A DNA stretch of 64,000 nt from Octopus vulgaris (Eukaryota), in assembly GCA_951406725.2 (NCBI GenBank), contig OX597815.1, positions 73,098,001 to 73,162,000 of the forward strand, read 5' to 3'. Numbering within the stretch: position 1 is the stretch's first letter; every line of letters begins with the position of its first letter. The notes under the pieces are model-generated. The model saw only the letters and a list, made by a program, of their open reading frames with translations. It was not told the DNA's origin and ran no database searches. Positions 11,343 through 51,825 of this stretch are shown here, in pieces. The translations under genes were made by a program, and so were the position numbers.

Positions 11343-11403
<61 letters not shown>

Positions 11404-17149: not shown

Positions 17150-17468
17150 GTACTCTGTCGGTTACGACGACGAGGGTCCCAGTTGATCCCATCAACAGAA
17201 CAGCACGCTCGTGAAATTAACGTACAAAGTGGCTGAGCACTTCACAGACACGTGTACCATTAATGTAGTTCTCAGGGGAGATTCAGCATGACACAGGATG
17301 TGACAAGGCTGGTCCTTTGAAACACAGGTACTACTCATTTTTGCCAGCTGAATGGACTGGAGCAACGAGAATTAAGCATCTCGCACAAGGACGCAACACG
17401 CCGCTGGGCATCGAACTCACGACTTTACGATCGTGAGCCGAATACTTCTAACCACTAAGCCATGCGCC
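17150..17468 (-). mobile_element. SINE family C (tRNA-derived)
   Basis: Reverse complement begins 'aggcgcatggcttagtggttagaag..tcggctcacgatcgtaaagtcgtgagttcgat', like the copies at 22898 and 50507. Confidence 0.75.
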
Positions 17469-17469
17469 T

Positions 17470-18020
17470 TTTCCATCGGCCTATTATGCTGTTCGATGAC
17501 ATAGACTTACTTGCCTCTCCAGGTATCGTGTCCGAATGTATCTTGCTCCTGCTGTCACCTAGAATTTCTTTACGATAGAACTGAAGACTTGCAATGGTGT
17601 TTAACACCATTGAAGTAATGTAATCCGCATACGCCGACACAGCTCTCTCGCATCCCAGCTCGAAAGGGATGCCGCTCAAGACTTGTAACTTTCGCAGCAA
17701 TGGCTCGAGAGCCAGGACGTGTAGAAGAGATGAGAGAAGACACCCCTGATAGACTGGGTGCACGATATGAAACAGTTTTGAGAGGTCACAGCTTACTTTG
17801 ACCATCGAGAAAGCACCGCTGTGCCTTACTGTGATCCAGCCTCTCATAAATGTTTTCAAAATCGGCTGCTTCTATGACTGAGGACAAGCAGCGATGTTCG
17901 ATTTTATTTAAAGCTTTCGGCTAATCGAAATTGATCAGGGCTCTTCACCAACGCCTGATTTGCGACCCGCTCCCCCTACAATGTATCATATGAGGTGGAG
18001 GTTGTCGTAGATAGGGAAGA
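17470..18020 (-). mobile_element. L1/Tx1-like non-LTR retrotransposon, RT fragment
   Basis: IYDNLHLI, VYQGCLLSSLLHVLALEPLLRKL, AYADYIT (YADD-like); homologous to 43830-45720. Confidence 0.85.
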
Positions 18021-22582: not shown

Positions 22583-22790
22583 AAATGTAATCGCACGTGG
22601 ACTGTTTGCGATTTTTCCTCATTCTTCCTTCTTATTGGACTTTCTTGATTTTTCTGTTTCCGACGAAGAGCTATGTTCGAAACGTAAAGCGACAACTCTC
22701 TTTCACCGAGCGTGATATTAATACATTACTTGTGCTACATCCTCCCATTTGCTTGTTTTTTCTTTTTCTTCTTTTTTTCTTGTGTTTTTT
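22583..22790 (+). mobile_element. Short Penelope-type pLTR-like element with a mutated minimal hammerhead motif (22656-22690)
   Basis: gttt-CCGACGA-a-GAGC tat GTTC-GAAAC-GTA-aagc; same family as 47586-47748 and 51587-51766; flanked by microsatellites. Confidence 0.6.
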
Positions 22791-22794
22791 TAAA

Positions 22795-22859
<65 letters not shown>

Positions 22860-23279: not shown

Positions 23280-23725
23280 TACAGGGTTATTCAAAAAGTA
23301 AGAGACACAAATACATTCTACATATTCCTTTATAGGGGAAGGTTTAAAGTTTATAGCTGAACATGTTCAATTGAATTAAGCCTTAAATAAAATAATATTT
23401 TAATTTTGTTTTAATGTTTCATTTTGTTCATTTTATTTAAAGCTGTATAATTTTGATTTGTGTAATCCCTTAGAAAATGGCGACGCTACAAGAAAAGTCT
23501 TTTTGTGTGCTGCAGTTTGAGAAATGCAAATCAATTGTGCAAGTGGAACGTGAATTTCGCCGCCAATTCAATAAAAATCCACCACGTCACAAGCAAATTT
23601 ACGAATGGCATAAAAATTGTTTGTCGAGCAACATATGGTGCTCATGTTGAGTGCATACTATCTTAAAATAAAATTTAAATCTTCCCTTATCAAGAATTAT
23701 GTAGAATGTGTTTGTGTCTCTTAAC
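23280..23725 (+). mobile_element. Internally deleted Tc1/mariner-superfamily element with N-terminal transposase remnant
   Basis: TA+CAGGG start; ~55-bp inverted repeats (23298-23353 vs 23672-23722). ATG at 23477 opens MATLQEKSFCVLQFEKCKSIVQVEREFRRQFNKNPPRHKQIYEWHK, an HTH-like transposase N-terminus. Confidence 0.8.
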
Positions 23726-23964: not shown

Positions 23965-24015
<51 letters not shown>

Positions 24016-24017
<2 letters not shown>

Positions 24018-24378
24018 CAAGAGTTAAGGAATGAAGTAGATAAAATCTGGGTTACATATGTTTCGCAGCGAGTGGAACCTCAGAAGTGGTAAATATCCAA
24101 CCGAGGTGTACAATGCAGGCTACTCTTCAGGCCAAATGTATCTTGATTAAATGAAATTTACATTGTCGTTATATTCTCCACTCAAATTGTGCTCTCAACG
24201 CATTCTGGTCGAATCCTCCGTGTGTTAACATGGGCCTTCTGACGACAATATAAACTTCCTATACTCAAGATATCCTTGGCCTGAAGAGTAGCCTGTGGTA
24301 TACACCCCTCTTGGATATTTACCACTCCCGAAGCATATGTAGTCCGGCTCTTATCTACTTCATTCTTTAACTTTTGTA
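24016..24378. mobile_element. Inverted pair of Penelope-type pLTR segments, each with a hammerhead-like core
   Basis: 24016-24148 is the diverged reverse complement of 24263-24378. Core is CTGAAGA..GAAAC-ATAT-GTA; adjacent to (TA)n and upstream of a GIY-YIG remnant. Confidence 0.7.
24048..24135 (-). ncRNA. Type I hammerhead-like motif with a ~50-nt insertion in loop II
   Basis: Minus strand: tggc-CTGAAGA-GTAGC[~50 nt]GCTGC-GAAAC-atat-GTA-accc; helix III is palindromic (ACATATGT); helix I is partly mismatched. Confidence 0.5.
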
Positions 24379-24469
24379 TTTTTATTCGTATATCTGGCAG
24401 CCCTGGTTACCTACCGTGAAATAGAAAATAATTTTTTCAAGCTTATCGTACTTCGATACGGAAAAATCC

Positions 24470-25330
24470 AGACCTTCCCACCCCAATAAATCACAATTGT
24501 TCCTAAAAGTTTTTTTTTAAATATATTTTCTACGGATTGCTTGAAGCTCACTTTCTTCCTACACTTGGAACCTTAACAACTTGTTCAGGTGCATCAGCTT
24601 TAGACAAATGTTTCCTTAAATCTAACAGATACCATGCTATTTTTGATAGACACACCGTGAAGTTATCTTACGCTAACTCTATTAATTTAGAGCAGCATAT
24701 GCGCACGCACTGAATAAACTATAGTAATATGAAACAACAGTTCAGTAACTCACCTACAGGAACTAGCAAACATATGCATCAAAGCACCAACAAAGGAGAT
24801 GTAAACAGCAATGAAAAGCACCAGATACGGCCAAATCATGATAGTAGAAATGATTGTAATATAGCTAGCACGGTAACAACGTCGGAAAATTAAGTCAGCA
24901 CCATCATATATAAAAATAAATATGTTAAATGCTCATGCAGAGAAAAATCAAAATGCTCATTGATGTATCTCTGTATGAATTCAAATCTTGTATATAAATG
25001 TACCATGAAAACACGAGGAGGGCCGTGTATTTACATTGGGGCAACAGCTGATTCGTTCAAAAATCGTTATCGCAATCATGTCACCAACTTCAAGAAAATC
25101 AATAAGAGACATTCAACATCTCTGGCCAATTGTGTGTGGTGACTTAAGGAAGATTAAATTAAATATAACATAACTTGCTCCATAGTTAGGTACGCAAAAA
25201 CTATATAATATCTTTTCTGAGATATGCCGATCTGCTCCGAGAAATCCTCGTCTATTCTGTAGACCTATGAAAAGATCATTATAGGATTTCCGAAAGACTT
25301 TCAAGATGCTTACATGCATATAAATGAACT
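24470..25330 (+). mobile_element. Degenerate Penelope-like element, linker + GIY-YIG endonuclease remnant
   Basis: RYHAIFDRHTVKLSY, then CSCREKSKC..C.NSNLVYKC..IYIGATADSFKNRYRNH..F..STSLANCVW*LK (VY..YIG..R..H GIY-YIG pattern). Confidence 0.85.
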
Positions 25331-26029
25331 TTCGCACAATGCAGTGGGAATGTCTTTGAGTAGCTGTTAACGTAATCCACCTTAAGGTATGGATGAATAA
25401 AATTTAGCTTTGACCTCCCCTTTTTTATAAACACCAAGTAGCTATCTAACTCGTTATGTGAACGTATGTGCGCTAAACCACACGTGTACGTATGCTTACC
25501 TCATCGTGACTGTTTGTATGAGCATGTGTACGTGCGTCATACAAGCTACGTGAGGGCGTTTATACATCCATATCCGTTAACGGTCATTTTTAATACTTTT
25601 ATTCGCTGTACTGTGTGCTGGTTTCTTTTTTGCATCTACTATTTTATTATTGATCTTCTATATAAGTAAAGCTATATCGTTTAATTTGCTGCTTTTCTTC
25701 ACATGAACTGAGAATATACATTACGAAAGTGTTATTTTAATGAGTTGTATCTGTTTATCACCCGAAGAGACACATCTGCACCATCGAATGCTCCTGAGCA
25801 GTTGTTCAGTATCCCATCCGTGAGAGATCACATCGATGCTAGATGTGTCGAAACAATTATCGTGATTATTAAAAACTCTCGTATCTTCTATCTTCCGTCT
25901 CTCATTAACCAGATACATAACGAACACTGTGAAAGTGACCGTATTTTACCAGTAAGCTACCATAAACCATTCGTTTTATGATCTAGTATCTAATATATAT
26001 ATATATTCTCTTTTACTCTTTTTTTTTAC

Positions 26030-26370
26030 TCTTATTTGTTTCAGTCATTCGACTGCGACCGCTGCTTTTAGTCGAACAAATCGACCCCCAGAACTTATTC
26101 TTTGTAAGCCAAGTACTTATTCTATCGTTCTCTTTTGGCGAACCGCTAAGTTACGGGAACATAAACGCACCAGCATCGGTTGTCAAGCGATGGAGGGGAG
26201 ACAAACACAGACACAGGCACACACATATATACGACTGGCTTCTTACAGTTTCCGTCTACCAAATCTATTTACAAGGCTTTGGTCGACCTGGGGCTATAGT
26301 AGAAGGCACTTGCCCAAGGTCCCACGCAGGGGGACCGAACCCGGAACCGTGTGGTTAGCAAGCAAGCTAC
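26030..26370 (-). mobile_element. SINE family A
   Basis: Reverse complement of the 30276-30700 copy (gcttgc..accacac.gttccgggttc, ccttgggcaagtg, gtagacggaaactg). Confidence 0.85.
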
Positions 26371-27769
26371 TTTATTTCATAAAATTTGTCATCATAGACA
26401 GTACAAAGAGTGTGTAGCTTTGCGGGCTGGACAAACACATTAATGAATGAAAATGAAATAGAATGAATAAATCAAAGACGAAATCCAACACCCGTCGATT
26501 AGATTTTTCTCGAAAACATTTTCTTTTTTTAAAAAATCAATCTGAGGTTTCAAACCTCTTACAAGAAGGAGGCACTAAAACCTCTTACTTAACATGTTTT
26601 TTTTAAAACACACAATTGAGGTTATAAACCATGACAAATAATACAATGAGATGAGGTTTCAAACCCTATAACGAAGGTCTTTCACCTCCTACTCTTCGAT
26701 ATATCCATCGATATATTCATCATTATCTTCAATGCCGACTTACATGAGTGAGGCATGGGAAATGGCGGGATACAGGGACTCAAGCGGCATATGTACGTTC
26801 GAGGGTGTGGGCGTGCGTTGTGTGCGTGTGTGCGTGCCTGCGTGCGTGTTAGTGTACGTGTGTGAGAGGGTGAGAGGAGTGAGGTGGAGTGTGGGTTCGT
26901 TGTCTGAAGAAGAGTGTGTGAATGGGTGGATGTAGCTGTGTGAGGGTGGTGGTGGTGTGTGCGTGTCTGTTGGTACGTGTGCTTAGACGGAGTAGGAATG
27001 TGTATATGTGTGTATATATGTGCAGATGTATGAGTATGTGTGTGTTTATGGGCGTGTGTGTGTATTACGTGCGTGTATATGCGTGTACGTTGTGTGAGGG
27101 TTATGTCTGGAGGTATGTGTGCGTTCGTGTATGCGTGTATATATATATATATACGTATATGTGTACGCATGCATGTGTATATATGTATGTATGTATATCT
27201 ATATGTATGTGTGTATGTATATATGTAAGTTTATATATGTACTTATAGATGTATGTTCGATATATAAATTTCCCAATGGCTGAGAAGATACTTATCGAAG
27301 TGTGCACATCTGTTGATGAAATCTGCTCTGAAAACATAATTAGATTAAATAGCAGGGATTTTCAAATTCATCAAGATAGGTTTTCTCTAGTGGCAACATA
27401 TCTAATTTATGACAGATATTTGTGTATGTTGTAACTATGTGTAGATGTGATTGTAAATATGGACATTGTTTTTTCAAAGAAACAAGTCGAGAGATAAAGA
27501 GAGTAGCACTCGTATACTGAATGTTCACTAGTGTACGAGCTCGCTGTGAGTGTGTGTGTGTTGCGTTTCAGATACGTTAATAAACGAACAAAAACTAAGC
27601 AGCCCAATTGTATTTGGAGGCTGAAGGGGTTCGATACAGAATTAAGACATCAAACGGAACATTCTAGAATAAAGAAGTAGGTCCTATATTAAAGGGCCAC
27701 GAAATGTCAGTTATTGAGCACATAGTCATGCACACTTTTCTGCAGACCCGGCACATGTTCTTTTGTTCT

Positions 27770-28115
27770 TTCACTTATTTCAGATTGCGGCCTTGCTGGA
27801 GCACCGCCTTTAGTCGAACAAATCGACCCCAGGACTTAATCTTTGTAAGCCTAGTACTTATTCTAGCGGTTTCTTTTGTCGAACCGCTAAATTAAGGGGA
27901 CGTAAATACACCAACATCGGTTGTTAAGCGATGGAGGGGGGACAAACACAGACACACAAATACATACATGCATATATACATATATATATTTATATATACG
28001 ACAGGCTTCTTTCAGTTTACGTTTTCCAAATCCACTCACAAGGTTTAGTCGTCTTGGGGCTATAGTGGAAGACATTTATCCAAGGCGCCACTGAACCCGG
28101 AACCAAGTGGTTGGG
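27770..28115 (-). mobile_element. SINE family A
   Basis: Same diagnostic blocks in reverse orientation, with an internal (TA)/(CA) tract. Confidence 0.85.
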
Positions 28116-28140
28116 AATTTTTTAAACATATATTTGTCTG

Positions 28141-28414
28141 GTTCTATATTTATGAGATGAGGAATTATGTGCATTATTTACATTATTTATAATTGATGGA
28201 TATTTGTCCTCACCATGTTTGTTGTTAAGAGCGTAGGCTACTAACCCCAACAACAACAACAACAACGATGAATACCTTAGGAATGAGAACCCATGTTCGA
28301 AATTTCCCCAAGACACCTGATGAAGGCTGCAGGGTATATCAGCCGAAACGTTGTGTTAACAACAAACAAGATGAGGACAAATATCCGTCAATTGTAAATA
28401 ATGTAAATAATGTA
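28141..28414 (+). mobile_element. Mini Penelope-type element: hammerhead-bearing segment with an inverted copy of its 3' part
   Basis: 28170-28228 is the reverse complement of 28356-28414; hammerhead at 28312-28357. Confidence 0.75.
28312..28357 (+). ncRNA. Minimal type I hammerhead ribozyme
   Basis: GACAC-CTGATGA-a-GGCTG[cagggtatat]CAGCC-GAAAC-GTT^GTGTT: intact core, 5-bp helix II, 5-bp helix I, palindromic AACGTT helix III. Confidence 0.75.
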
Positions 28415-28484
28415 TATATGTATAAGATCGAGCGGTACGTTATGATAGCGTGATGTCTACATATTAATATTACACATATAAAAT

Positions 28485-28700
28485 AAGGCGGCTAATTAGC
28501 AGAGTCGATAGCACACCGGGAAAAATGGTTGGCGGAATTTCGTCCGTCTTCACATTCTGAGTTCATATTCCGCCGAGGTCGACTTTGCTTTTCGGTGTCG
28601 ATAAAATAAGTACCAGTTGAGTACTGGAGTCGACGAAATCGACTAACTTCTTCCTCTGAAATTGCTGGCCTTGTGTCAAAATGCCAAAATTTTAAACCAA
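28485..28700 (+). mobile_element. SINE family B
   Basis: 'aaggcggctaattagcagagtcg...gagttcatattccgccgaggtcgactttgc...gtcgataaaataagtaccag'. Confidence 0.85.
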
Positions 28701-28717
28701 TATTACACATATAAAAT

Positions 28718-29620
28718 AAAGCGGCGAGCTAGCTGAATCGTTAGCACGTCAAGCGAAATGCTTAGCAGCATTTCGTCCGTCTCGCGTTCTGAACACAAAT
28801 TCCGCCAAGGTCGACTTTGCCTTTCATACTTTCGGGCAGTGGCGGCTTATGTATAGGCACTGTGGAACTGCAGCACCACTATTTCCACTCGATATTATCG
28901 ATAGCATTCCTTTTTTCTTTAATTCTTTTCTTCATACTTGTTCATTATATAATCCTTAAACTTAATGTCAGTAGCCATCCCCTAGTTTATGAAAAAAATA
29001 CAAAAATCATTGTATAGAACTGTGCGCTTCAAAGTTCCAGCGACGCAGAGGTTGGCTGTTGTGCGCATGCTCACATGTCCGAGATAGGAAGCTGCACACT
29101 ACGGAGAGAGTAGGGTGGTTCACGCAGTGCTGACCCTGGTGTCCTGGTGCAAGATAGAGTTTTTCTTTTTGACTCCGCGTGTGTTGCGTGTTATTTTCTT
29201 GAATGTGATAAAGTGTAGAATTAGATTATTATCCTGCTTTCAGCTACAGTGTTGCTGCCAGGATTTGAAAAATAGGGCTGATTCCCACCCCTTATTTTGT
29301 GATTTAGCAGGGATTTTTGAAAAACAAAAGGGAATTCATGGCGGTGTTCAGTGAACAAATTAAACACACTACCCGGCAGTAGCTAAAACGCAAATCGATC
29401 AAATTTATGTATGTTTTCTTTTTATATGTTTGTTTACTTTTACACAATATTAAAACAACAGCTAAAAATTTTCTGAAGCAGCACTCCCACTAATTTTATC
29501 TACGAGCCACCACTGCTTTCAGAATCGATAAAATAAACACCCGTTGAAGATCGGGATCGATGTGATCGACTTACACCCTTCTCCGAAGTTGCTGGCTTTG
29601 TGCCAAAATTTGAAATCAGT
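28718..29620 (+). mobile_element. SINE family B interrupted by a hAT MITE
   Basis: Head at 28718-28836; the body resumes at 29516 ('ctttcagaatcgataaaataa...gatgtgatcgact...gctggctttgtgccaaaatttgaa'). Confidence 0.8.
28837..29515. mobile_element. Non-autonomous hAT element (679 bp) with an 8-bp target-site duplication
   Basis: TIRs cagtggcggct / agccaccactg; flanks ctttcggg (28829-28836) and ctttcaga (29516-29523); cleanly splits a SINE. Confidence 0.85.
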
Positions 29621-30275
29621 ATTACATACATAGATAGTAGATCTAATATGATGGCAGTTCCTTCTTGACCGAAGATCATGAAGAAGAGCAGTACCCCCGA
29701 AAGTTACTATGTAAACCGAATCGTGACGCTGCAGGCCTTTTTCTTCCTGCCTGAGCCTAGTAGTTTTAAAGTGAGAATCAGTCCTCACAATCTGATCCCA
29801 TTTGGTGGGTCTGACTTGGATGTCTGACCACAGGGGCTCAGATGGCTAAGACAGCTGCGGTGACCAGTAAGCTGTGGGTTTTACATCGGAGTGACCTCGT
29901 CTTAGGTGAATTATGTTACAGGGATGGAGGGCTCCATCTACGCTGGAGTTGCTGGATGGGTGTCAAAGAGGGCACAGGGCAACCCGAAGACTTTACTATT
30001 AAGAGTGACGCGACTCGACTTCTCCGTTCCCACACCACTCACAAGGCAGTGAGAGAGTTTGTGCTTAGAGTTTCTTCCGTAAGATGCTAATTAACCCTTA
30101 ACCGGGACCCTGGTAAGTGATACTATTCTGGGTCGTAGTTGACCTGGGAACAATAGTAGCAAAGAGATTGTTTCACGCTCCTCAAACTCTGGAAAGCCAG
30201 GACCAGGGTCCCACTATTGGATGCAGTTTAAAGTCATTCACAGGGGATATATCTAATATGAATAATATAATATGA

Positions 30276-30453
30276 AGGCGCAGACGTGGCTAGGTGGTAA
30301 GAAGCTTGCTTCCCAACCACACCGTTGCAGGTTCCGTTCCACTGCCTGGCACCTTGAGCAAGTGTCTTCTACTATTGCTTCGGGCCGACCCAAGTCTTGC
30401 GAGTGGATTAAGTAGATGGAAACTGAATTAATCCAGTCGTATATACATGTATG

Positions 30454-30500
<47 letters not shown>

Positions 30501-30700
30501 TCCCTCACCACCGCTTGACAACTGGTGTTGGTGCTTTTACGTCCCGTAACTTAGCGGTTCGGCAAAATAACCGATAGAATAAGTAACAGGCTTGAAAAAA
30601 AAATTACTGGTATCGATTCATTCAACAAAACATTCTTTAAGGCGGTGCCCTAGCAAGACCGCAGTCTAATGACTGAAACAAGTAAATGAAAGATAAAAGC
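30276..30700 (+). mobile_element. SINE family A, full-length (tRNA-like head, CORE-like 'ccttgagcaagtg' block, internal (TG)n)
   Basis: 'aggcgcagacgtggctaggtggtaagaagcttgcttcccaaccac...ggcaccttgagcaagtgtcttctact...gtctaatgactgaaacaagtaaa'; multicopy in the window. Confidence 0.9.
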
Positions 30701-30887
30701 TACAATACACGAAAGATCATAAATCATGTCCCATAAACACAAGACTATCAGATGAAAACACAAGGGCGCTGCCATGTGGAATGACGTCTCGGAAATTGAG
30801 ACCCATTTAGGTTTGAAGTCACCGGGAGTTCAGATAGCGACTTCGAAGAAATTCAAATTGTATTTCATATTTCTTAAGCTCTGTATA

Positions 30888-30921
<34 letters not shown>

Positions 30922-31399
30922 TTTATGTGACTGTGTGTGTGTATGATGTAGGCTGCAGCAGTTACAATAGACGCTGCTCTACCAGCTAAACTTCAGTATA
31001 TATGTATATACGCACACACATATAATATAGTTATATAATATACATGTATGTGTATGTATTATCTCCCCATATATAAATATACATACATACATATATACAC
31101 ACACACACACACACGAGGCAATGACCTTGAAACCGGTTCGTATGTAGCATCCGTATCTTCGGGGAGGATAACCTCCCTTTACAGGCAAACGAGGACACCG
31201 ATATGGTGTCAGTCCTTCTGGTGACGTTGATGATCGCCTGGGGCTAAAAGCATCAGTAACACTCCTACCACCCCGCCCTGTCCCTAGCCACATTCAGATG
31301 GCTGATCCCCCTTACGTTATATATATATATATAAAGAGAGAGAGAGAGAGATACACACACACGCATTCACACACATATATGTATGTGTGTGTATCTTTT

Positions 31400-31765
31400 A
31401 TTTGCTTCAGTCATTTGATTGCGGCCACAATGAGGTACCAACATAAAGAACTTTTCTCAAATGAATCAACTGTAAGTCTTTTTTATTTTCCAAAGTCTTA
31501 GCGTAAGTTGCCGAGACATAAACACACCAACACCGATTGTCAAGCGTCGGGGTGGAGAACGCAAGCACAGACACAACGATACACACACATAATATATACA
31601 AGACAGGTTTTTTTTCAGTTTCTGTCTACCTAATCCACTCACAAAGTTTTAGTCGAACTGAGGGTACAGTAGAAAACACTTACCCAAGGTACCACGTAGT
31701 AGGACTGAACCCGGTACCATGCGGTTGGGAAGTAAACGTTTTACCTCACAACCACACCTGCGCCA
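31400..31765 (-). mobile_element. SINE family A
   Basis: Ends in 'accacacctgcgcc', the reverse complement of the head. Confidence 0.8.
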
Positions 31766-31855
31766 ATTGTATGTATATATATATATATATATATATGTAT
31801 AAACTTCATTTTATATTTAATTTATCTCTCTTCATAGATATATATACATATCTAA

Positions 31856-31919
<64 letters not shown>

Positions 31920-32200
31920 TATCTCTCCATCTGTGCGCGTGCATGTATGTATACAGTTTCTATTGTATTACTGGAGACTTTGAGACACTTTCTGATGAAT
32001 TCTCCAGAAAGCCAATAGAAGTAGTCCGCTAAGTGCCACTTATCATTAAATACATTAATTTATATACACACACTCTACTATATATACATATGAATATGTG
32101 TATATGCTCTACTTGATGTATTGAGTGCCTTATTTTAATTGTTGTTCCCTCCGTTTCTAGCCAATTACCAACTACAATTATACATACTTATATACGTACG

Positions 32201-32252
<52 letters not shown>

Positions 32253-32272
32253 ATAGAGAGAGAGAGAGAGAT

Positions 32273-32369
<97 letters not shown>

Positions 32370-33191
32370 ATACATATATACATACACGCGTACATGCACA
32401 CATGCGTATACACACATACGTACACACACACACACACACATACTTACATGTATTTATGGTATATGTTTGGAAGAGATGGGTGAATGGATGACTGGGTATT
32501 CTACACAATGAAGACAATGGCGATACATTGAAACCTATTGAATGTGTGTAAAGATGGTATTAGAGGAAAAAAATAATGAAAATTTGAACAGAATTTGAAG
32601 AAAAACTGAATAAAAATGGATAAAGAACGGAGAGAAAAAAATGAAGAAATGATAAAATCTGAAAAGACAAGAAAGAAAACGAATAAAAATGAAGGAGAAA
32701 ACAAATACGAAAGGATAAATAGATAGGAAATAGGATGAAAATATTAAAAGTAGAATGAAGGTAGAAAACAAAAATGAGACGCCAGGAAAATAAAACAAAG
32801 ACTTAGATGACAAAGGATATACGTAAGTGAAGGGGAGGGTTCATGGAAGTGGTAGTGGGTGAAAGATGTATAAAGAGGCGGAGAGTGAGTGAAGGTGTGA
32901 GTTAGAAAAACGGAGGGAAAGATTGGGAGAAAGAGTGGGGGAGAAGAGAGATATAATGGAATGAATATTAGAGTAAACACTGTCTTGTCTACAGTATTTC
33001 TGAAATGACTATGCGCAGTAATATATTAATACAAACGTATATACATGTGTATATATACATGGCTGAGTGGCTAAGAAACTAGCTTTGCTACCACGTTGTT
33101 TTGGGTTCAGTCCTGAAGCCCATTCCATATATATATATATATATATGGCGGTACATCAGCATGGCCGCAGTTCTGAGCTGAAACAAAACAA

Positions 33192-33238
<47 letters not shown>

Positions 33239-34266
33239 ATATATATATATATTTAAAAGGAGATGTGGGACACGAGTTGTGATATATAAAAAAAGGAAAT
33301 GAAGAAAATGCTGACAAAATAATTTAAGTAAGGGAGAGTGTATTTAATTAGATGAAAGTTCTTTTTACCGGTTGCGCATTTGTTATGCCTATCAAAAGAT
33401 ATTTTTTAAGAGAGATAGAGTTCCTTTCTGATAGATTTTTTTCTCTTATCTGACTTTATGTTGGGTTTGCTGTCTCTTATATGTGAAAAAAGAGGCTCCA
33501 GAGTTGTTTAAGATTTGCTTGGTTTCGCGCCTAAAATTTCTTGTGGACAATGGTCAATACAATTTTGATTGGTCATTATAAAGGGGTCACGTGAATGTTT
33601 GAATGGAGAAGTTGGTGTTGGGGTAAGAAAATAGGCTCCAGAGATGTTAAAATTTGGCTAGTGTCGCGCCTAAAATTTCTTATTGGTCATAAAAAGAGGT
33701 CACGTGGATGTGGTCATAATAGAGAGGCCACGTGAATGTTTAGAATAAATGTTGGTGTGGGTGGTGTATGGAGTTTTCGAAAATAGCGTTGTTGAAAATT
33801 CTTATTGTTCAGGCTGGTCAGTAGACGTCATGTGGATATTTTAAATAGCTTTTTAGCGCGTAGTTAAGGAGTGTATTTTCCGCTTGACTGAATTTGAGCT
33901 GGATAAGTAAGTTCGTTTAGGACAGGAAGAGCTATATGTATGTATGTGTGCGCTGTGTGTGTGTGTGTGTGTGTGTGTGTTTATATGTATGTTGGATCGC
34001 GCGCGCTTGTATATATGTGTGCGTGTGTGGGTACAATTTTCAATATTTATAGTTCTGCTGGCCTTGTGCCTGTATCGGGAAGCAACGTGTTTGTGTGAAG
34101 TCAATATTTACAGTCATTTCCAAAAAATGGTGTTGGATGTTTTGCACCCGTATCAAATTATGTGTATGTGTGGAACCATATATTTGCGTGTGTCATGGTG
34201 TTAATATCTGGGTAAAAGTGTGTGTAGGGTGTGTGCAGGTGTAAGTGTGTTTGTTGTGGGTTCGTG

Positions 34267-34731
34267 TTAGGGGGATGTGTTTAGAAGTGGTCTGTATTTA
34301 TTAATAAGGTGGGATTCCATGGTTATTCGCTGGGTATGAGTGGCATTGTCTTTAAATTTGTAGAGGGGAAAGATTCTAAAATTGGGATGAAGTTGTGCGG
34401 CACAGGTATCAATATGTGCACTAAGTGCTATTTTTCTGTATTCCTGTATTTTTATTTGGGATCTGTGGACAGTCATGCGTTGGCGGAGGCTATTTTTAGT
34501 TTGGCCTATGTAGTGTTCATTACAGCCCGAGCAAGTTAAGACATATACTAGGTTTTCTGATGCGCATGTGAAGTTGTGTTTTACTGTGAAACGTTGCCCT
34601 TGTTTAAAAAGGAATTCCGGACCTTCTATTAGGTTGATGCATATACCACAGTTGGGTCTATTGCATTTGTTTACTGTGGGTTTAGTTGTTGTGGTTGGCA
34701 GTACTTTGGCATTTGTTAGGATGTTTTTCAA
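34267..34731 (-). pseudogene. Inverted duplicate of the PLE GIY-YIG endonuclease domain
   Basis: 154 aa essentially identical to the C-terminus of the 35084-36193 ORF. Confidence 0.9.
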
Positions 34732-34746
34732 TGGGACGATCTAGAT

Positions 34747-35139
34747 ATGCTCAACCACCTCCCCAATACACTTCTTGCTGAACAAACCCTGCTAGTAACA
34801 TTCGATGTAGTTAATCTTTACTCCAACATCCCCCACAACCTAGGAATAGAAGCTATCCAATTTTGGCTGGATAATTACTCCAACGAACTCCCACACCGCA
34901 TCAAAAAGGAATTTATTTTAGAAGGACTCAAATTCATCTTAGAGAATAATTTCTTCACCTTCAACAACAAATTCTACAGACAGAAATCAGGGACGGCAAT
35001 GGGAACGGAAACAGCTCCCACTTACGCCAACCTAGTCATGGGATACCTGGAAATCACCCTCTATAATAACGTTCTTAACCAATGTGGCACCACTCTCCAC
35101 ACACACACACACACAGAAGAACTGGAAGAGATATCTTGA
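34747..35139 (+). CDS. PLE reverse transcriptase, N-terminal part (5'-truncated; frameshifts in a (CA)9 run)
   Basis: LVTFDVVNLYSNIP, NFFTFNNKFYRQKSGTAMG and APTYANLVMG are PLE RT motifs. Confidence 0.9.
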   Translation: MLNHLPNTLLAEQTLLVTFDVVNLYSNIPHNLGIEAIQFWLDNYSNELPHRIKKEFILEGLKFILENNFFTFNNKFYRQKSGTAMGTETAPTYANLVMGYLEITLYNNVLNQCGTTLHTHTHTEELEEIS

Positions 35140-36193
35140 TGACTGCTTCATCCTTTGGCCCGAAACCATCGAGAAGCTTAAAGAATTTCACACCCTTATA
35201 AATGGGCTCAACGCAAACATTATTTTCACAATGGAATACAGCCCTCAACAAATTCCCTTCCTCGACATCCTCATTAAAATTCACAACAAAAAAATAGAAA
35301 CAGACATATACTACAAGCCCACAGACTCCAAGCAATACCTCCCTTTCAATTCATGCCACCCTAGACACGTTAAAATTAACATTCCCTACAACTTAGCCAA
35401 GAGAATTTGCACTATAGTCTCCAATAAAAACACCCGTCTCTTACGTCTACAAGAACTTAAGGACACATTAACAAGCAGGGATTACCCCACGTCACTAATT
35501 GACAATGGGATCCAAAGCGCCCTAAAACTCAGCACACATGAACTTAGACGCCCTAAACCTGTTACATCGAAACCCCATACTCTACCATACATCTCTACAC
35601 ACAACCCCCTCAACAATGAAGCTTTTGACACCATCCTCCAGAACATTCCTGTATTAAAAAAGGACCATAGAATGAACCAAATCCTCCCAACACACGAAAT
35701 CATAAAGAGCAAAAGGCAACCCAAATCATTGAAAACCATCCTAACAAATGCCAAAGTACTGCCAACCACAACAACTAAACCCACAGTAAACAAATGCAAT
35801 AGACCCAACTGTGGTATATGCATCAACCTAATAGAAGGTCCGGAATTCCTTTTTAAACAAGGGCAACGTTTCACAGTAAAACACAACTTCACATGCGCAT
35901 CAGAAAACCTAGTATATGTCTTAACTTGCTCGGGCTGTAATGAACACTACATAGGCCAAACTAAAAATAGCCTCCGCCAACGCATGACTGTCCACAGATC
36001 CCAAATAAAAATACAGGAATACAGAAAAATAGCACTTAGTGCACATATTGATACCTGTGCCGCACAACTTCATCCCAATTTTAGAATCTTTCCCCTCTAC
36101 AAATTTAAAGACAATGCCACTCATACCCAGCGAATAACCATGGAATCCCACCTTATTAATAAATACAGACCACTTCTAAACACATCCCCCTAA
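35084..36193 (+). CDS. PLE RT C-terminal part + Cys-rich linker + GIY-YIG endonuclease (Neptune-like architecture)
   Basis: WKRYLDDCF, IPFLDI, YYKPTD..YLPFNSCHP, CNRPNCGIC, NLVYVLTCSGCNEHYIGQT..LRQRMTVH, E..LI..Y.P.LN. Confidence 0.93.
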   Translation: MAPLSTHTHTQKNWKRYLDDCFILWPETIEKLKEFHTLINGLNANIIFTMEYSPQQIPFLDILIKIHNKKIETDIYYKPTDSKQYLPFNSCHPRHVKINIPYNLAKRICTIVSNKNTRLLRLQELKDTLTSRDYPTSLIDNGIQSALKLSTHELRRPKPVTSKPHTLPYISTHNPLNNEAFDTILQNIPVLKKDHRMNQILPTHEIIKSKRQPKSLKTILTNAKVLPTTTTKPTVNKCNRPNCGICINLIEGPEFLFKQGQRFTVKHNFTCASENLVYVLTCSGCNEHYIGQTKNSLRQRMTVHRSQIKIQEYRKIALSAHIDTCAAQLHPNFRIFPLYKFKDNATHTQRITMESHLINKYRPLLNTSP

Positions 36194-36475
36194 CACGAAC
36201 CCACAACAAACACACTTACACCTGCACACACCCTACACACACTTTTACCCAGATATTAACACCATGACACACGCAAATATATGGTTCCACACATACACAT
36301 AATTTGATACGGGTGCAAAACATCCAACACCATTTTTTGGAAATGACTGTAAATATTGACTTCACACAAACACGTTGCTTCCCGATACAGGCACAAGGCC
36401 AGCAGAACTATAAATATTGAAAATTGTACCCACACACGCACACATATATACACGCGCGCGCCCCAACATACATAT

Positions 36476-36517
<42 letters not shown>

Positions 36518-36629
36518 CGCACACATACATACATATAGCTCTTCCTGTCCTAAACGAACTTACTTATCCAGCTCAAATTCAGTCAAGCGGAAAATACACT
36601 CCTTAACTACGCGCTAAAAAGTTATTTAA

Positions 36630-36980
36630 AATATCCACATGACGTCTACTGACCAGCCTGAACAATAAGAATTTTCAACAACGCTATTTTCGAAAACTCC
36701 ATACACCACCCACACCAACATTCATTCTAAACATTCACGTGGCCTCTCTATTATGACCACATCCACGTGACCTTTTTTATGACCAATAAGAAATTTTAGG
36801 CGCGACACTAGCCAAATTTTAACATCTCTGGAGCCTATTTTCTTACCCCAACACCAACTTCCATTCAAACATTCACGTGACCCCTTTATAATGACCAATC
36901 AAAATTGTATTGACCATTGTCCACAAGAAATTTTAGGCGCGAAACCAAGCAAATCTTAAACAACTCTGGAGCCTCTTTTT
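36630..36980 (+). promoter_or_regulatory. Candidate PLE pLTR promoter: duplicated module with E-box, CCAAT and E2F-like motifs (mirror copy at ~33490-33835)
   Basis: CACGTG at 36736, 36764, 36874; CCAAT at 36783, 36895; GGCGCGAAA at 36936; TGACGT at 36640. Function is inferred only. Confidence 0.4.
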
Positions 36981-37171
36981 TCACATATAAGAGACAGCAA
37001 ACCCAACATAAAGTCAGATAAGAGAAAAAATCTATCAGAAAGGAACTCTATCTCTCTTAAAAAAATATCTTTTGATAAGCATAACAAATGCGCAACCGGT
37101 AAAAAGAACTTTCACCTAATTAAATACACTCTCCCTTACTTAAATTATTTTGTCAGCATTTTCTTCATTTC

Positions 37172-37213
<42 letters not shown>

Positions 37214-38085
37214 ACACACAGAGGGTTGGCCAAATGTCACCCGACAGTAAATCAAAATTCCATAAATACTATCATTAATTCTGTATTGACTCGAATGGAA
37301 AAATGTGCCACTCAAGAAGGCTTTCCGTTTGAACAATTTTCATGCTGTTTCATATTTAGATACTTTTATTATATTCATTTAGTTGTTAAACATAAATAAA
37401 TCTTGAAATTAAATGGTTTTGATTTACTGTCAGGTAACTTTTCACCAACTCGAACTGGTAACTTCCACTATTCCTTGCTATGGATTATCATCAAACATTC
37501 TCATTTGAAGCTGCTTTTGAATATTACCTATAACTGTGTTTTCCATTTGAACATGGATCTATCTAACGCATTCCTATTCTATTCTGATCCTTCCACCATT
37601 CTTGACAAGCTGGAATGCACTAATATCCTCGATTGGGGACTTTCCCTTATTTTTACATTTTTCTGACTTTTCCCACTCTAATGACGGGATACTCAATATG
37701 ATGATTCACACACTTGGCTATTCCAGAAACAGCTGTAAGAAACTCTGTTGTATATCTATATCCTCTATCTAATTGAATGTCTTTTTCAAGATATGCCAAA
37801 CGCTTTGGTTTTTCATTCTTACTTTAACCTATATCTACCAACTCCAGGAAAAACCAGCTCTAACCTCTTCTGATAGGCAGTCTCAACATCACACATTCAA
37901 TTGTAGTTCAGACCGGAGTTTTAGAGGTAAACCAAGCTGAGCACTCATAGTACATACCTATTACTTTAAATCAGTTGACGAATACTCCCTACATATTCTA
38001 TATAATATATATATATATATTTTATATATATATATGTAATATATATATATATATATATATATTTTTTATATATATATAATATATA

Positions 38086-38143
<58 letters not shown>

Positions 38144-38355
38144 GAAATATTAAAATAACTAAGTCTCTCTAAAAGAGAACAGCGGCAGCGTTCCCGGAAA
38201 ATAATAGTTATCGCCATACTAATATGGCATTCTTATAAAAATAAGAAAAAAGCTGTCCGCTTATTAGCTCCATGAGGCCATCGCCTTAAGTTAGCTATTT
38301 GATACACAAACTGTATCCATATAACCTTCGAACAAGGGAGGTCAGTCGATCCACA

Positions 38356-38426
38356 CTACTTGACCGGCAGCTACAGACGCGTTTCGGGGTATTGCCCCTT
38401 TTCAATGCAGCGTAGCCAGCCAGTAG
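38356..38426 (-). ncRNA. Type I hammerhead ribozyme (U3:A8 variant), copy 1
   Basis: Reverse complement of 39215-39285. Confidence 0.85.
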
Positions 38427-38717
38427 GTGTCGCTTCCGACAATCTCTGTTCGATGGTTTTATTTACCTAGTTTCGGTGGAATACATCCACTTGTTTTCAA
38501 TAATAGAAATATTAAAATAACTAAGTCTCTCTAAAAGAGAACAGCGGCAGCGTTCCCGGAAAATAATAGTTATCGCCATACTAATATGGCATTCTTATAA
38601 AAATAAGAAAAAAACTGTCCGCTTATTAGCTCCATGAGGCCATCGCCTTAAGTTAGCTATTTGATACACAAACTGTATCCATATAACCTTCGAACAAGGG
38701 AGGTCAGTCGATCCACA

Positions 38718-38788
38718 CTACTTGACCGGCAGCTACAGACGCGTTTCGGGGTATTGCCCCTTTTCAATGCAGCGTAGCCAGCCAGTAG
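38718..38788 (-). ncRNA. Type I hammerhead ribozyme (U3:A8 variant), copy 2
   Basis: Identical to copy 1, offset by 362 bp. Confidence 0.85.
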
Positions 38789-39214
38789 GTGTCGCTTCCG
38801 ACAATCTCTGTTCGATGGTTTTATTTACCTAGTTTCGGTGGAATACATCCACTTGTTTTCAATAATAGAAATATTAAAATAACTAAGTCTCTCTAAAACG
38901 TCTGTAGCTGCCGGTCAAGTAGTGTGGATCGACTGACCTCCCTTGTTCGAAGGTTATATGGATACAGTTTGTGTATCAAATAGCTAACTTAAGGCGATGG
39001 CCTCATGGAGCTAATAAGCGGACAGCTTTTTTTCTTATTTTTATAAGAATGCCATATTAGTATGGCGATAACTATTATTTTCCGGGAACGCTGCCGCTGT
39101 TCTCTTTTAGAGAGACTTAGTTATTTTAATATTTCTATTATTGAAAACAAGTGGATGTATTCCACCGAAACTAGGTAAATAAAACCATCGAACAGAGATT
39201 GTCGGAAGCGACAC

Positions 39215-39285
39215 CTACTGGCTGGCTACGCTGCATTGAAAAGGGGCAATACCCCGAAACGCGTCTGTAGCTGCCGGTCAAGTAG
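39215..39285 (+). ncRNA. Type I hammerhead ribozyme (U3:A8 variant), copy 3; predicted cleavage after C39265
   Basis: CTACT-GGCTGGC-tac-GCTGCA | TTGAAAA | GGGG caata CCCC | GAAAC gc GTC^ | TGTAGC-t-GCCGGTC-a-AGTAG: extended helix I, helix II and palindromic helix III all pair. Confidence 0.87.
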
Positions 39286-39437
39286 TGTGGATCGACTGAC
39301 CTCCCTTGTTCGAAGGTTATATGGATACAGTTTGTGTATCAAATAGCTAACTTAAGGCGATGGCCTCATGGAGCTAATAAGCGGACAGCTTTTTTCTTAT
39401 TTTTATAAGAATGCCATATTAGTATGGCGATAACTAT

Positions 39438-39535
<98 letters not shown>

Positions 39536-40474
39536 TGTATGTATGTATGTATATATGAAAAGTTAGACAGAGAAGAGAAAAGTAGACGAAAACCGGGCGA
39601 AAACAGAGCGCATAAAAAAGCGAGACAAAAACACGATACAAGGAACATTCGCAGCTGACTTTCTCATCAGTTGGTATCCGAGACGTCATAGTGGTTTCAC
39701 GCTATTAAAACCAAGACCACTGTTATCTGACAGCAGCGCCTGCGCATGAATGTGTGTGAGGACAGGACAAAATAATATGGCGTGTAGAATAAGAAATAAT
39801 GACAAGATTTAACAGACAATGAATGGTACATACACAATAGAAAATGCCTTATGGCTGTACAATAGGCAAGGGGAATAATTGTTTGTATTCAGTATTAAAA
39901 CGATACAATACACACACACACAAAAAAAAAACCTTTTCGGCTATCAAGACAGACATAGTGAGGTAGCGCAAAGAAATGGAAAAAGTCCTTGGCGGACGGA
40001 ACACAAACGTGTCTGGCTGGGTCAGTAAAAAAGAACGACACACTTTGACTGGACACCGGTCACATGGTAGGAGAGAGGAAGGGTGGTGGAGGGACTAAGG
40101 GATGGGAGAAAGAAAGAGAGATACATAAGAGTAAGAAAGAGGAAAGGAGAGAGGACAAGGTCCAAGGGAGGCAATTAAGGAGGAGAGGGAAGAAAAGAAA
40201 AAATTCAGGGAATATTTTTTAGTTAACTAAACAAAGCAAGTGTGGTTGCGCTGCAAACAATATTTCAAAAGTTTGACAGAGTAGGGAAAAATAGACGAAA
40301 ACTGGGCGAAAACAGTGAAGTACTGGAGTACGTAGTAGGCGGTCAGAGATAGTCGTGTCTTTACTGGTTTTACTAAGTATACTGTATAACAAAGTGGGCG
40401 TTATAAAAATTCAACATTTTAAGGATTATAACAGTGACAACGAGGATTTAAACAACTCACGATGAATTAATAAA

Positions 40475-42544: not shown

Positions 42545-43340
42545 ACCCATCGGCACATCTACCCCATTCCTACTGCTCCGATGACAATAGGGATAACTGT
42601 TATGTTCGACTCGCGTAGCCGCCAAATCTTAGCGATCTCAGTTATCAGGTCTCCATATTTATCAACTTTTTCTCTTCCTTTCATGATGATGTGTTGATCT
42701 CCTGGTACTGCTACGTCGATTATTAGGCACTCTTGTTTGTCCCTCCTAAAGGTTACTATATCTGGCCTTCGGTGCTCTAACACTCTGTCTGTATGAAAAG
42801 TCCCAGAGGATTTTTGCCTTCCCCTTTTCGTCCATTACCTTTTCCGGTGTATGTTGGTACCAAGCATCCATAACTTCATATTTATACTTACGGCATAGTA
42901 GCCAGTGGAGGTTTGGGGCTACCTTGTCGTGTCTACGCTTGTACTCTTTCTTCGCAAGACTTTCACAAGCACTAACAATGTAAGTCACGCTTTCGACCCT
43001 CTTCCCACACATTCTGCAGAGGTCCGTTGCACTTGTGTGGTATATATTCTTTTACACTGAGTTGGTAATAAATGCCTGATCCTGGGCTGCGATGATTAGG
43101 CTTTCAGTATTCTTTTTTAGGTTACCCTTGTTAAGCCACCTCCCTGGTGCTTCCTGGTCTTTTAATTTGTTGGTTTCACGGTGGAACTGACCATGTAATT
43201 TCATACGGAGTAGGGTTTCTTCTCTTTCATTGGTTGTTCTTGATCGAAATTCATGAGCACTCAAAAGTCCATTTTTGTTAACTTCTTCTGCACTAGCAGC
43301 GTGCTGTAGCAGTTCTTGTTTGCTATTCACCAAATATTCT
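42545..43340 (-). mobile_element. Dong/R4-like LINE, CCHC + RLE fragment
   Basis: KLHGQF, TESLIIAAQDQA, CRMCGKRVESVTYIVSAC, YKRRHDKV, KILWDF, HRRPDIV..CLIIDVAVP..EKVDKYGDL. Confidence 0.9.
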
Positions 43341-43829
43341 TCTTATTATTATTATGATCTTCCAATTTTGTTTCCATTTCTTGCCGATTGTCTTCCCAAC
43401 ACCTAGGGCAAAGAAACCCATTGTATACATTGGTAAGCCATCAAAATAAACACATCAGATTGTTCACTTACAAAGTCATGTGATAGAAAAAGGGAAGACA
43501 AAGAAGAAAAGGAAAGAAAGAAAAAAGAAACCAAAGAAAATAAAGGGAGAAAAACGAAAGAAAATTCACAGCGACAATGCTATTCTCAATACGTGTGACG
43601 TACCAGTTATACAATCTTTTTCACTTCCTGAATGGATGGTAAGCCAGGGATCATCGTCAAATAATTTTCAGTTCTCTTTTTTATCATTCCAAGTGCTCCT
43701 ACAATCACTGGTATTGTAACCGTCTTGATTCCACATTTTAATCGATTTCAGTCAGCAAATATTTTCTGAGTTTATCAAATTTTTTTGCGGAGATATTATA
43801 ATCACAAGGTATATTATTATAATATATCA

Positions 43830-45720
43830 TTGAGAAAATGGCTAAAGAACCTGGGTGGGGCCCTGATCAGTTTAGATCAGTGTAAAGTTTTCGATGGGGT
43901 CGACCATCTATACCTGGCGGCGGTCCTCATGGCAGCTGGTTTCGGGCCTGTATTCAGGGGCTGGATCGCTGCAATGTACAGCGGCATCTGTTCAGTGTGA
44001 CTAGAGAGAACGGTCACCTCTCAGAGCCGTTCATCATCATGCGCTCTGTCCGGCAGGGTTGCCCCCTCTCGTTTCTCTTGTATGTACTGACTCTCGAGCC
44101 ATTAATACACAAACTGGAGGTGTATAGAGGCATCTCGCGTGAGCTAGGATGTGGGAGATACGTGCCGGCATATGCCGACGACGTTACCGTAGTGGTGTCG
44201 GATCATAAACACATAGAAGTGATCGGTACCGCTTTCAGGGACTACGAGGTGGTTTCAGGAGCAACAGTTAACTAGGAAAAATCAGTGGGCTTGTGGCTCG
44301 GCACCTGGAGAAGTAAGTCCATGCCGTCCAACTGCGTCGCTTGGCGCGCTGGACGGACGGACAGGTTAAATTGCTCGGTGTCTGGTTCGGTCCGGCCCTC
44401 CAGATGGACAAAAACTGGGACGAGAGAAAGCTATCCCTGAAAGGTCGGGCAGAGGTGGCTAACGCATATAGCACGTCCGTCATCTACTATCGCTTGACCG
44501 TCGTGCCTTGTCCTGGCCATCGTCTGATTACGCCGGAGCGAATACTGTCCCACTTCTTGTGGAAGGGATGCATCCCGATGGTAGCGGTCTATCTCATGTC
44601 AGCACCCGCTGAGTGGAGGCCTGGGCATGCCGGGATTGGTGATGCGCAGATATGCGCTGAGGCTACAACATCTCCAGTGCTTCCCTGTTGGTGAACAGAA
44701 GTGGTCGCCGTTCGCCATACACATATTTTCGCAGCTAGTTTCTTTAACGGAGCTGCAGTCCTGTGTAAAACGGAGACCGCGCGGAAGCATCTGGAAAGTG
44801 GAATGTTTTTAAGCACTCGCAGCCCTCAGCCAAGCGGACACTGCGATAGATGGAACGTCCACTTTAGCTTTTTATAGAGGATTAGTGGAGGAAAAGTGCA
44901 ACGACGTTCTTTGGGGAGACCTTCGTCGTCGAAGAAAATCAACTAGCCGCTCTTTTCCGGAGAACTTTCGGGCCGGGACCGATGGATAATTTCCAAAGAT
45001 CTCTAGCTTGGCAGTGCTACTGGGGAGCTTTGCCTGTTCGAGATAAACTTTACAGGCACGGAAGTGCCATCAGCCGAGCATGTCCGAAATGCACGCAGGA
45101 CGACGAAACGGACCTGCATGTACTCGTCCAGTATCCGAGCATTGCTGACCAGTGGTTTTATGTCGAACACTTGCTGATTCGTGTGGGACGGATCCGGCTG
45201 TCAACTGAATCCATCGTGAAGATCGCACCGCCGCCTTCCTTTAACCAGGAAGGAAAGGCTGTGTTTATATGCCTGGTTGCCATGGCGAAAGAGATTGTAT
45301 GGTGGACGAGATTGAAGGGGCTGAAGACAGACACCTTTCTCGTTGGCCAATCCCTGATGAACTTCATCAAGTTTCACTTGAAAAGGAAAATAAGGGTAGA
45401 GACGGAAGTGTTATCTTCTAGCCAGTTTACTGAAAGGTGGATGAAAGTGGCGAGAATGATGCGAATGAACGAACCTGCCCTGAGCATACGCCTGTAGTTG
45501 GGAAAAAGGAAAGGAAAAAAGCACCTACCCCAAAAGTCAGGGCGCTTGGCCCTTGTTGGAGTTTCTCCTGTATTAGGAGGGCTGCATCCTTCATGTTATC
45601 ACATACCTTTATCGCATTTCACCGTCTTTTCCAATTTTCCCTAATCTTTTATATACCCCACCAAAACAAATTGTCAATTGCTCTTGTGATGTTCCCCTCG
45701 TTTATGCCCGTGTGACTAAC
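43830..45720 (+). mobile_element. L1/Tx1-like non-LTR retrotransposon, degenerate RT + C-terminal zinc-binding region + 3' UTR
   Basis: LDQCKVFDGVDH, SVRQGCPLS.LLYVLTLEPL, YADDVTV, VKLLGVWF, LSLKGRAEVAN, ALPVRDKL..CPKC...ETDLH; many disruptions. Confidence 0.92.

Positions 45721-47585: not shown

Positions 47586-47904
<319 letters not shown>

Positions 47905-51760: not shown

Positions 51761-51825
<65 letters not shown>

Follow-up and report, generated by a model that had tools for sequence, protein, structure and literature searches.

Head-to-head inverted insertions, among them a retrozyme multimer, with a Penelope-like element footprint in a 64-kb window of Octopus vulgaris DNA

We analyzed a stretch of 64,000 nucleotides of Octopus vulgaris DNA (assembly GCA_951406725.2, contig OX597815.1, positions 73,098,001 to 73,162,000 of the forward strand), hereafter called the window, which is animal DNA rich in microsatellites. 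Four insertions, numbered E1 to E4 from left to right, are each built from a minus-strand arm set back to back with a plus-strand arm of the same element. Taken as a whole, the set is probably best explained as insertions made by the machinery of endonuclease-bearing (EN+) Penelope-like elements (PLEs), the four belonging to different families and ages. Within it, E4 is a retrozyme multimer that bears the full PLE footprint, i.e., an inverted arm, two 3' ends, and a TA target.

The initial annotation had pointed to inverted head-to-head arms at four sites, and alignment of the arms confirmed this arrangement in all of them. Both outer ends were always 3' ends of the element, and the two arms stopped at different 3' points. 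The arms of E1 (24015-24169, minus strand, and 24242-24379, plus strand) were identical at 115 of 138 aligned bases (83%), with 17 gap columns besides, and those of E2 (28166-28228, minus, and 28356-28418, plus) at 57 of 63; the plus arm of E2 begins at about 28229. In E3, the segment 33292-34733 (minus) was an inverted copy of 35727-37175 (plus), with the junction between 34733 and 34734, and 28 of the 1465 alignment columns differed (seven substitutions, 19 gap columns, and two columns beyond the element end). The arms of E4 (38141-38898, minus, and 38899-39440, plus) were identical at 541 of 542 positions. As arm identity is high in E3 and E4 and low in E1 and E2, the first pair is considered young and the second old. 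Unpaired spacers of 72, 127, and 993 nt separated the arms of E1, E2, and E3, respectively, and junction microhomology, where it could be judged, amounted to a few bases at most. The outer flanks were unrelated by inversion in 4/4 cases and the symmetry ended at the element boundaries, which excludes a fold-back read chimera. Pairwise shuffle tests detected no sequence shared among E1-E4, and this agrees with the earlier remark that the PLE at 33-37 kb and the 362-bp unit of E4 are dissimilar. No third copy of any element was found within the window, apart from a single 21-nt match for E2.

The E4 arms carry 2.1 units (left, with complete hammerheads at cores 38767 and 38405) and 1.5 units (right, with one complete hammerhead at 39236-39265) of a 362-nt sequence repeated head to tail. 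This unit has 41% GC and is non-coding, the longest ATG-started open reading frame (ORF) in the six frames of the circularised unit being 38 codons. In its hammerhead, the core is of the U3-A8 type, helix II spans 4 bp, helix III is palindromic, and helix I is long; the predicted fold (-31.4 kcal/mol, z = -3.3) displays an internal loop within helix I and a 5-nt loop 2. We took as retrozymes those sequences with head-to-tail units of about 170-400 nt, a GC content below 45%, no protein coding, and a complete type I hammerhead with a minimum free energy (MFE) below -5 kcal/mol in at least two consecutive units; judged by these sequence criteria, E4 is a young retrozyme of the kind without long terminal repeats (non-LTR). 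In these respects, it is like the metazoan non-LTR retrozymes, whose literature includes mussel units of 350-390 bp. It is unlike the published ones, as far as their available descriptions go, in combining a U3-A8 core with a PLE footprint, and no homology to a PLE pseudo-long terminal repeat (pLTR) was found for it here. Knowledge of the unit allowed both 3' ends to be placed exactly: they lie 235 and 175 nt after the ribozyme cut site, 60 nt apart, with the left arm reaching further 3', and both finish in an identical short AT-rich word before (TA)n. These paired ends are the 'tail' pattern of PLEs, somewhat longer than the usual 30-40 nt. Since E4 is a non-coding tandem array and carries the PLE insertion footprint, it is highly probable that it was mobilised in trans by PLE enzymes. 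A separate element (39556-39900, minus) adjoins the right microsatellite of E4; a 49-nt repeat (90%) of it lies 700 nt away at 40267-40315, and it shows a weak match to 60.3-60.4 kb.

E3 provides the protein-coding member of the set. The reverse transcriptase (RT) and GIY-YIG that the initial annotation had attributed to one insertion were recovered here, the GIY-YIG domain above the cut-off (E=1.5e-6) and RVT_1 below it (E=0.0014), and the protein had 334 homologues. The ORF remnant (34734-36193, plus) comprises a 5'-truncated RT, the thumb, a linker, and a GIY-YIG with CCHH, and near 35100 a (CA)n run marks the point of a frameshift. The inverted arm (33292-34733, minus) repeats the linker, GIY-YIG, and 3' untranslated region (UTR). 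That region, or pLTR, is about 1 kb long (36194-37175, plus) with two internal repeats of about 140 nt at 36709-36979. A putative 3' extension, or tail, of 37-40 nt (33255-33291, minus) is present on the left arm only and may derive from the element. Intact homologues have an RT as well as a GIY-YIG at the C terminus in a single ORF, and the best-scoring named one, from Argonauta hians, showed 57% identity. The CCHH residues (C271, C274, H293, and H310) were invariant in 40/40 aligned sequences. The linker, CX4CxxC at 35795-35821, was found in 110/120 homologues, and its spacer measures 24 aa in E3 and 23-29 aa in 84/120 homologues matched by pattern. In a by-eye comparison, the 24-aa spacer resembled the Neptune, not the Nematis, rows of Fig. 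S2 in Craig 2021 (PMC8557442). Based on these motifs, E3 is classified as a 5'-truncated Neptune-type EN+ PLE; none of its 334 homologues bears the name of a PLE clade.

E3 shares with described Neptune elements the RT with C-terminal GIY-YIG, the CCHH, a CX2-5CxxC linker whose spacer is long, a 5'-truncated copy in inverted orientation at the 5' end, the (TA)n target, and, if it is element-derived, a one-sided extension of 37-40 nt; it departs from the available descriptions in being dead, in its 3' UTR of about 1 kb, and in a hammerhead that is degenerate at best. This hammerhead-like motif (37072-37101, plus) combines a U3-A8 core and a 4-bp helix II with GCAA in place of GAAA; its helix III is palindromic and its helix I poor, and in core type and spacing it is like the hammerhead of E4. 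A pattern written post hoc was matched in 6/5000 shuffles, and neither the strict nor the relaxed hammerhead scan found a hammerhead in E3. A related locus, L001, has a U3-A8 motif that is intact and lies 3' of the ORF. With its truncated RT and frameshift, this copy of E3 cannot supply enzyme, and a tblastn search of the window with E3 and 120 Neptune-type homologues revealed no further fragment of this type. The UTR also holds a cluster of CACGTG (3), CCAAT (2), and GGCGCG (2) words at 36639-36941, possibly a pLTR promoter judging from the words themselves.

The third component of the footprint is the target. An outer end was counted as located at (TA)n when it was within 3 nt of a (TA)≥4 run, which occurs at 0.45% of random positions. 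This was the case for 5/8 outer ends: the left end of E1 (run at 23968-24014), both ends of E3 with the 3' extension included ((AT)n at 33197-33252 and (TA)n at 37176-37202), and both ends of E4 ((TA)n at 37999-38140 and (TA)n/(TATG)n at 39441-39556). For the four ends whose boundary was fixed independently of the TA run, p was about 3e-8. In control matches to a short interspersed nuclear element (SINE), which we take to be tRNA-like from an A/B-box resemblance, 0/16 had (TA)n at either end. A second SINE family is a poor control, since internal TA runs explain 3/38 of its match ends.

E1 and E2 are old and non-tandem. In the E1 left arm (24015-24169, minus), whose 3' end adjoins (TA)n, there is a hammerhead-like motif with a CTGAAGA core at 24130, GAAA, a predicted cut after 24053, and a helix II of unusual length, with 59 nt between core boxes, unlike the minimal hammerheads of pLTRs. 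A spacer (24170-24241, 72 nt, unpaired) represents an extra 5' part of one arm, and the right arm (24242-24379, plus) retains a decayed hammerhead with GAAG for GAAA. The E2 left arm (28166-28228, minus) starts 3 nt downstream of the predicted ribozyme cut and is followed by a putative 3' extension (28141-28165, minus), present on this arm only and possibly of element origin. A type I hammerhead of minimal form, with its core at 28317, the palindrome ACGT, and a cut after 28352, lies in the right arm (28229-28414, plus), which terminates in TATATGTATA only. E2 has the features of PLE pLTR ribozymes, namely an extra base between 9 and 10.1, a G10.1-C11.1 pair, and a palindromic 15.2-16.2, and differs from them in retaining the ribozyme in one arm only. 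The arm differences were mostly transitions in both elements (15:8 in E1 and 5:1 in E2).

The initial annotation had placed hammerheads in three insertions. Our custom strict type I scan, with a chance level of 0.27 cores per shuffled 64 kb, returned six cores, located in E2 (+28317), E4 (-38767, -38405, and +39236), and at 22660 and 47643. The claim thus held for E2 and E4, while the E1 minus-arm motif was reached by the relaxed scan only (score 25, where 0.15 matches are expected per shuffled window) and scored 13.3 bits (E=3.3, not significant) with a model built from the window. Among 11 motifs, C3-G8 and U3-A8 covaried 9:2. In Rfam, a first scan gave 0 hammerheads, and a second gave 92 weak matches without a hammerhead family. 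The MFE folds of E1, E2, and the 22.6- and 47.6-kb motifs were no better than those of shuffles.

No direct repeat of the unit was found in E1 or E2, so the retrozyme tandem arrangement is lacking in both. Between hammerhead and 3' end, E1 has 48 nt and E2, going by the coordinates, about 66 nt. For comparison, we used five loci (L001-L005) with animal-type PLE sequences inside bacterial genome records, presumably contaminating animal or host DNA; L004, which stops at the match, was excluded from the distance count, and in 3/4 readable loci of related autonomous PLEs the hammerhead was followed by 57-61 nt and then (TA)n. Being single, non-tandem, and with a spacing close to that of autonomous loci, E1 and E2 are explained equally well as truncated ends of autonomous PLEs and do not demonstrate trans-mobilisation. 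Hence, the initial annotation's proposal that non-coding ribozyme elements were mobilised in trans is upheld for E4 and not for this pair. It is rather likely that E1 and E2 are cis remnants, old and truncated pLTR ends that derive from other autonomous PLE families; no pLTR of an ORF-bearing PLE matching them was found within the window or in L001-L005. In these same loci, L005 contained several PLEs and hammerheads with TA runs between them. None of the five had a self-inverted copy of a 3' end, and L001-L004 had no self match at all. L005 had an 80-nt hairpin of the truncated RT region next to (TA)20, at the 5' truncation, a geometry different from that of E1-E4.

The inverted arm is optional: five other hammerhead-like ends at (TA)n, located in a Hydra-type remnant and at 6.3, 22.6, 47.6, and 51.6 kb, have none. 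Inversion was therefore present in 4/9 PLE-type insertions, or in 4/10 when a decayed pair at 57 kb is included. The remnant, absent from the initial annotation, is a decayed Hydra-type PLE 3' fragment (24537-25992, plus) that begins about 160 nt after E1 and 8 kb from E3, with a CxCX5C linker, a GIY-YIG without CxxC, no CCHH, a hammerhead-like fold with decayed core at about 25762-25870, and an end at (TA)7. For its 82-aa fragment, an exhaustive search gave 1091 relatives, with CxCX5-7C in 124/150 matches; a word-index search returned no match and Pfam nothing informative. A Hydra-type PLE is an equally possible partner class for E4 as the E3 type. The minimal-hammerhead 3' ends at 22583-22797, 47586-47747, and about 51580-51764 (all plus) run into long (TA)n; the first two are 75% identical and the third is similar by eye. 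Like E2, these motifs have the extra base before helix II and the palindromic 15.2-16.2 of PLE pLTR hammerheads. The motif at 6349-6443 (plus) has (AT)14 45 nt downstream. The 6.3- and 51.6-kb motifs were the top two of 16 non-training matches, weak alone (E=0.47 and 0.28), and (TA)n follows them after 45 and 82 nt, respectively (background of 11% within 130 nt). The 57-kb pair (57078-57416 and 57657-57996) is a decayed direct repeat (71%) in which hammerhead-like cores occur; an imperfect palindrome of 180 nt (57416-57598) lies between the two copies. In pairwise shuffle tests, neither the UTR nor the extension of E3 resembled E1, E2, E4, or any of the other motifs, the lowest value being 5/100, for E1 against the E3 extension; an apparent shared 3' word was rejected on this ground.

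We consider it very likely that PLE machinery inserted all four elements, and for the way in which the arms arose a two-primer mechanism is mildly favoured. Since (TA)n is identical on both strands, both strands would be nicked, and each 3'-OH would prime its own cDNA at one of two RNA start sites. The opposed cDNAs would extend toward each other, halt early, and be linked through their truncated ends, microhomology being slight or absent; completion of only one cDNA would leave a plain 5'-truncated end, such as the five seen in the window. E3 would have moved in cis and is now dead, and E4 would have been copied in trans from multimeric or circular retrozyme RNA by a (TA)n-targeting PLE. In E3, 993 nt at the 5' side occur in the right arm only and about 40 nt at the 3' side in the left arm only. 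In this element, as in E2, no arm lies wholly within its partner, so a single cDNA folding back would be insufficient, provided that the extensions are element sequence. As reported in Frangieh 2024 (PMC11167929), the Poseidon PLE PAc nicks and extends both strands of AT-rich DNA in vitro, two internal RT starts define the tail, and a dimer is predicted.

In the competing scheme of self-priming or template switching, the inverted arm would arise when one cDNA or antisense template folds onto itself at a short palindrome and is copied again, as Arkhipova 2013 (PMC3846280) proposes for rotifer Penelope elements from the palindromes at their inverted junctions. E4 fits such copying, as its right arm lies wholly within the left one and begins at the centre of the helix III palindrome; one of its T runs has 7 T in both upstream units and 6 T in both downstream units, and the E2 left arm begins inside an 8-nt palindrome. 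However, E2 and E3 arms each hold sequence absent from the partner, if the extensions are element-derived, and the junctions are not symmetric hairpins, given the spacers of E1, E2, and E3. We thus regard self-priming as unlikely, though it deserves to be kept in view. The start of the E4 right arm lies 4 nt before the ribozyme cut site, and junctions within 4 nt of the cut were found in 2/3 hammerhead-bearing elements (p about 0.016, with assumed arm lengths and post hoc). In PAc, which is of a different clade, the ribozyme was dispensable for insertion. This coincidence is a lead only, and no support for PLE insertion is claimed from it. It is doubtful that the ribozyme site of E4, through cleavage or stalling at the palindromic helix, set the end of one cDNA, with an E3-like Neptune family as partner via U3-A8; if true, PLE hammerheads would shape inversion junctions and E4 would be a direct integration record of a PLE-moved retrozyme.

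That E1, E2, and E4 are all non-autonomous and were mobilised in trans with the E3 family as partner is improbable. The geometry is common to all, the degenerate E3 motif matches the E4 hammerhead in U3-A8 core and spacing, and the L001 hammerhead is intact. Yet E3 is similar in sequence to none of the three, E1 and E2 are not tandem, U3-A8 also occurs in unrelated PLEs (Cervera 2014, PMC4209133), and Hydra and Naiad PLEs likewise target (TA)n. If instead E1 and E2 were chance or target-driven neighbours, each would consist of two independent, oppositely oriented insertions from a single family. Arm differences of 17% and 10% keep this conceivable, but no other copy of either family exists in 64 kb and yet two copies abut, the excess of transitions is expected for one ageing insertion, and a known form of PLE remnant is a pair of minimal hammerheads located 100-700 bp from each other on the two strands (Cervera 2014); we therefore find it quite improbable. 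It is extremely unlikely that the symmetry reflects an assembly artefact from fold-back chimeric reads or a DNA transposon or fold-back element with terminal inverted repeats, even though the E3 and E4 arms are at least 99% identical and true fold-back elements exist in the window (61397-62182). The symmetry stopping at the element ends and arms that differ by substitutions argue against this, and the unequal termini and the RT ORF of E3 rule out a DNA fold-back element. In L1 twin priming, primers from the two target strands yield an inverted junction, the 3' end is not duplicated, and poly(A) and a target-site duplication (TSD) are present. This process was ruled out too, because the 3' end is present in both arms of E1-E4 and poly(A) is absent.

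Several observations weigh against insertion of all four elements by PLE machinery as set out here. In the comparison of the flanks, a check suggested in the initial annotation, no TSD was discernible at E1-E4; direct similarity of the E2 flanks (1/200 shuffles) was rejected as a TSD, since it sits about 100 nt into each flank. The right end of E1 and both ends of E2 have no (TA)≥4, so that the initial description of TA-rich sites was only partly borne out. A pair of tRNA-like SINE copies (56564-56717 and 56773-56882), one pair among 16 matches, is also head to head about 55 nt apart, which indicates that geometry alone is not diagnostic for old elements and lends some credit to separate insertions. 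The element origin of the E2 and E3 tails is deduced from single copies. Under a model trained without it, from a rough 11-sequence alignment with pairing in just 58% of helix II cells, the E3 motif was the top match of the UTR yet scored 6.3 bits (E=1.1), and no sequence common to E4 and E3 or the Hydra-type remnant was found. Moreover, Arkhipova 2013 reports no cross-mobilisation between the two PLE types in a rotifer.

Other features of the window complete the picture. At 59800-59844 and 59983-60028, a perfect 45-nt inverted pair surrounds (CA)n/(TA)n; its left copy adjoins (TA)n as well, and the pair is possibly a fifth PLE-type inversion. The fold-back element at 61397-62182 has arms of 392 nt (96% identical) between nearly identical direct flanks of 7 nt, and a second, partial copy lies at 1-325; it is likely a non-autonomous DNA transposon. 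A small element at 23299-23723, similar to a miniature inverted-repeat transposable element, has 56-bp terminal inverted repeats (88%). ORF fragments at 10001-12638, 17455-17871, and 42746-45497 presumably belong to other retroelements of the long interspersed nuclear element type, based on their motifs.

Several parts of this finding are already published: the inverted truncated copy, the 30-40-nt tail, the (TA)n bias, opposite-strand hammerheads, and PLE-moved retrozymes. Craig 2021 describes for PLEs an inverted 5'-truncated copy, a one-sided tail of 30-40 nt, and a (TA)n bias, as well as non-autonomous Chlamydomonas PLEs with pLTRs and head-to-tail copies, and names the formation of the inverted structures and the role of the hammerhead as open questions. 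In the Adineta Penelope of Arkhipova 2013, head-to-head pLTRs are the commonest arrangement and trans-mobilisation is pLTR-dependent. Together with the Neptune-type ORF of E3, these two sources back the initial annotation's view of the geometry as a PLE hallmark. Cervera 2014 reports dual hammerheads on opposite strands, 100-700 bp apart, a U3-A8 variant, and dispersed motifs related to truncated PLEs. Mobilisation of retrozymes by PLEs was proposed in Cervera & de la Pena 2020 (PMC7229834), de la Pena 2020, and Li 2026 (bioRxiv 10.64898/2026.07.22.740005), and an autonomous/non-autonomous system appears in the first and the last of these. The word 'inverted' occurs 0 times in the available text of Cervera & de la Pena 2020 and, in that of Li 2026, only in a reference title. 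The literature searched, mostly without subscription papers, contained no account of an animal retrozyme bearing a footprint of an inverted arm together with a tail.

As each ingredient has been published, the finding is mostly a clean illustration, and its addition, a retrozyme multimer with a complete PLE footprint, is modest. In their available texts, earlier retrozyme papers base the case for PLE mobilisation on co-occurrence, on hammerheads in common, and on pLTR homology, whereas E4 shows the insertion footprint itself. Short, young, non-coding insertions such as E4 make the formation of inversions and the role of the hammerhead countable genome-wide.

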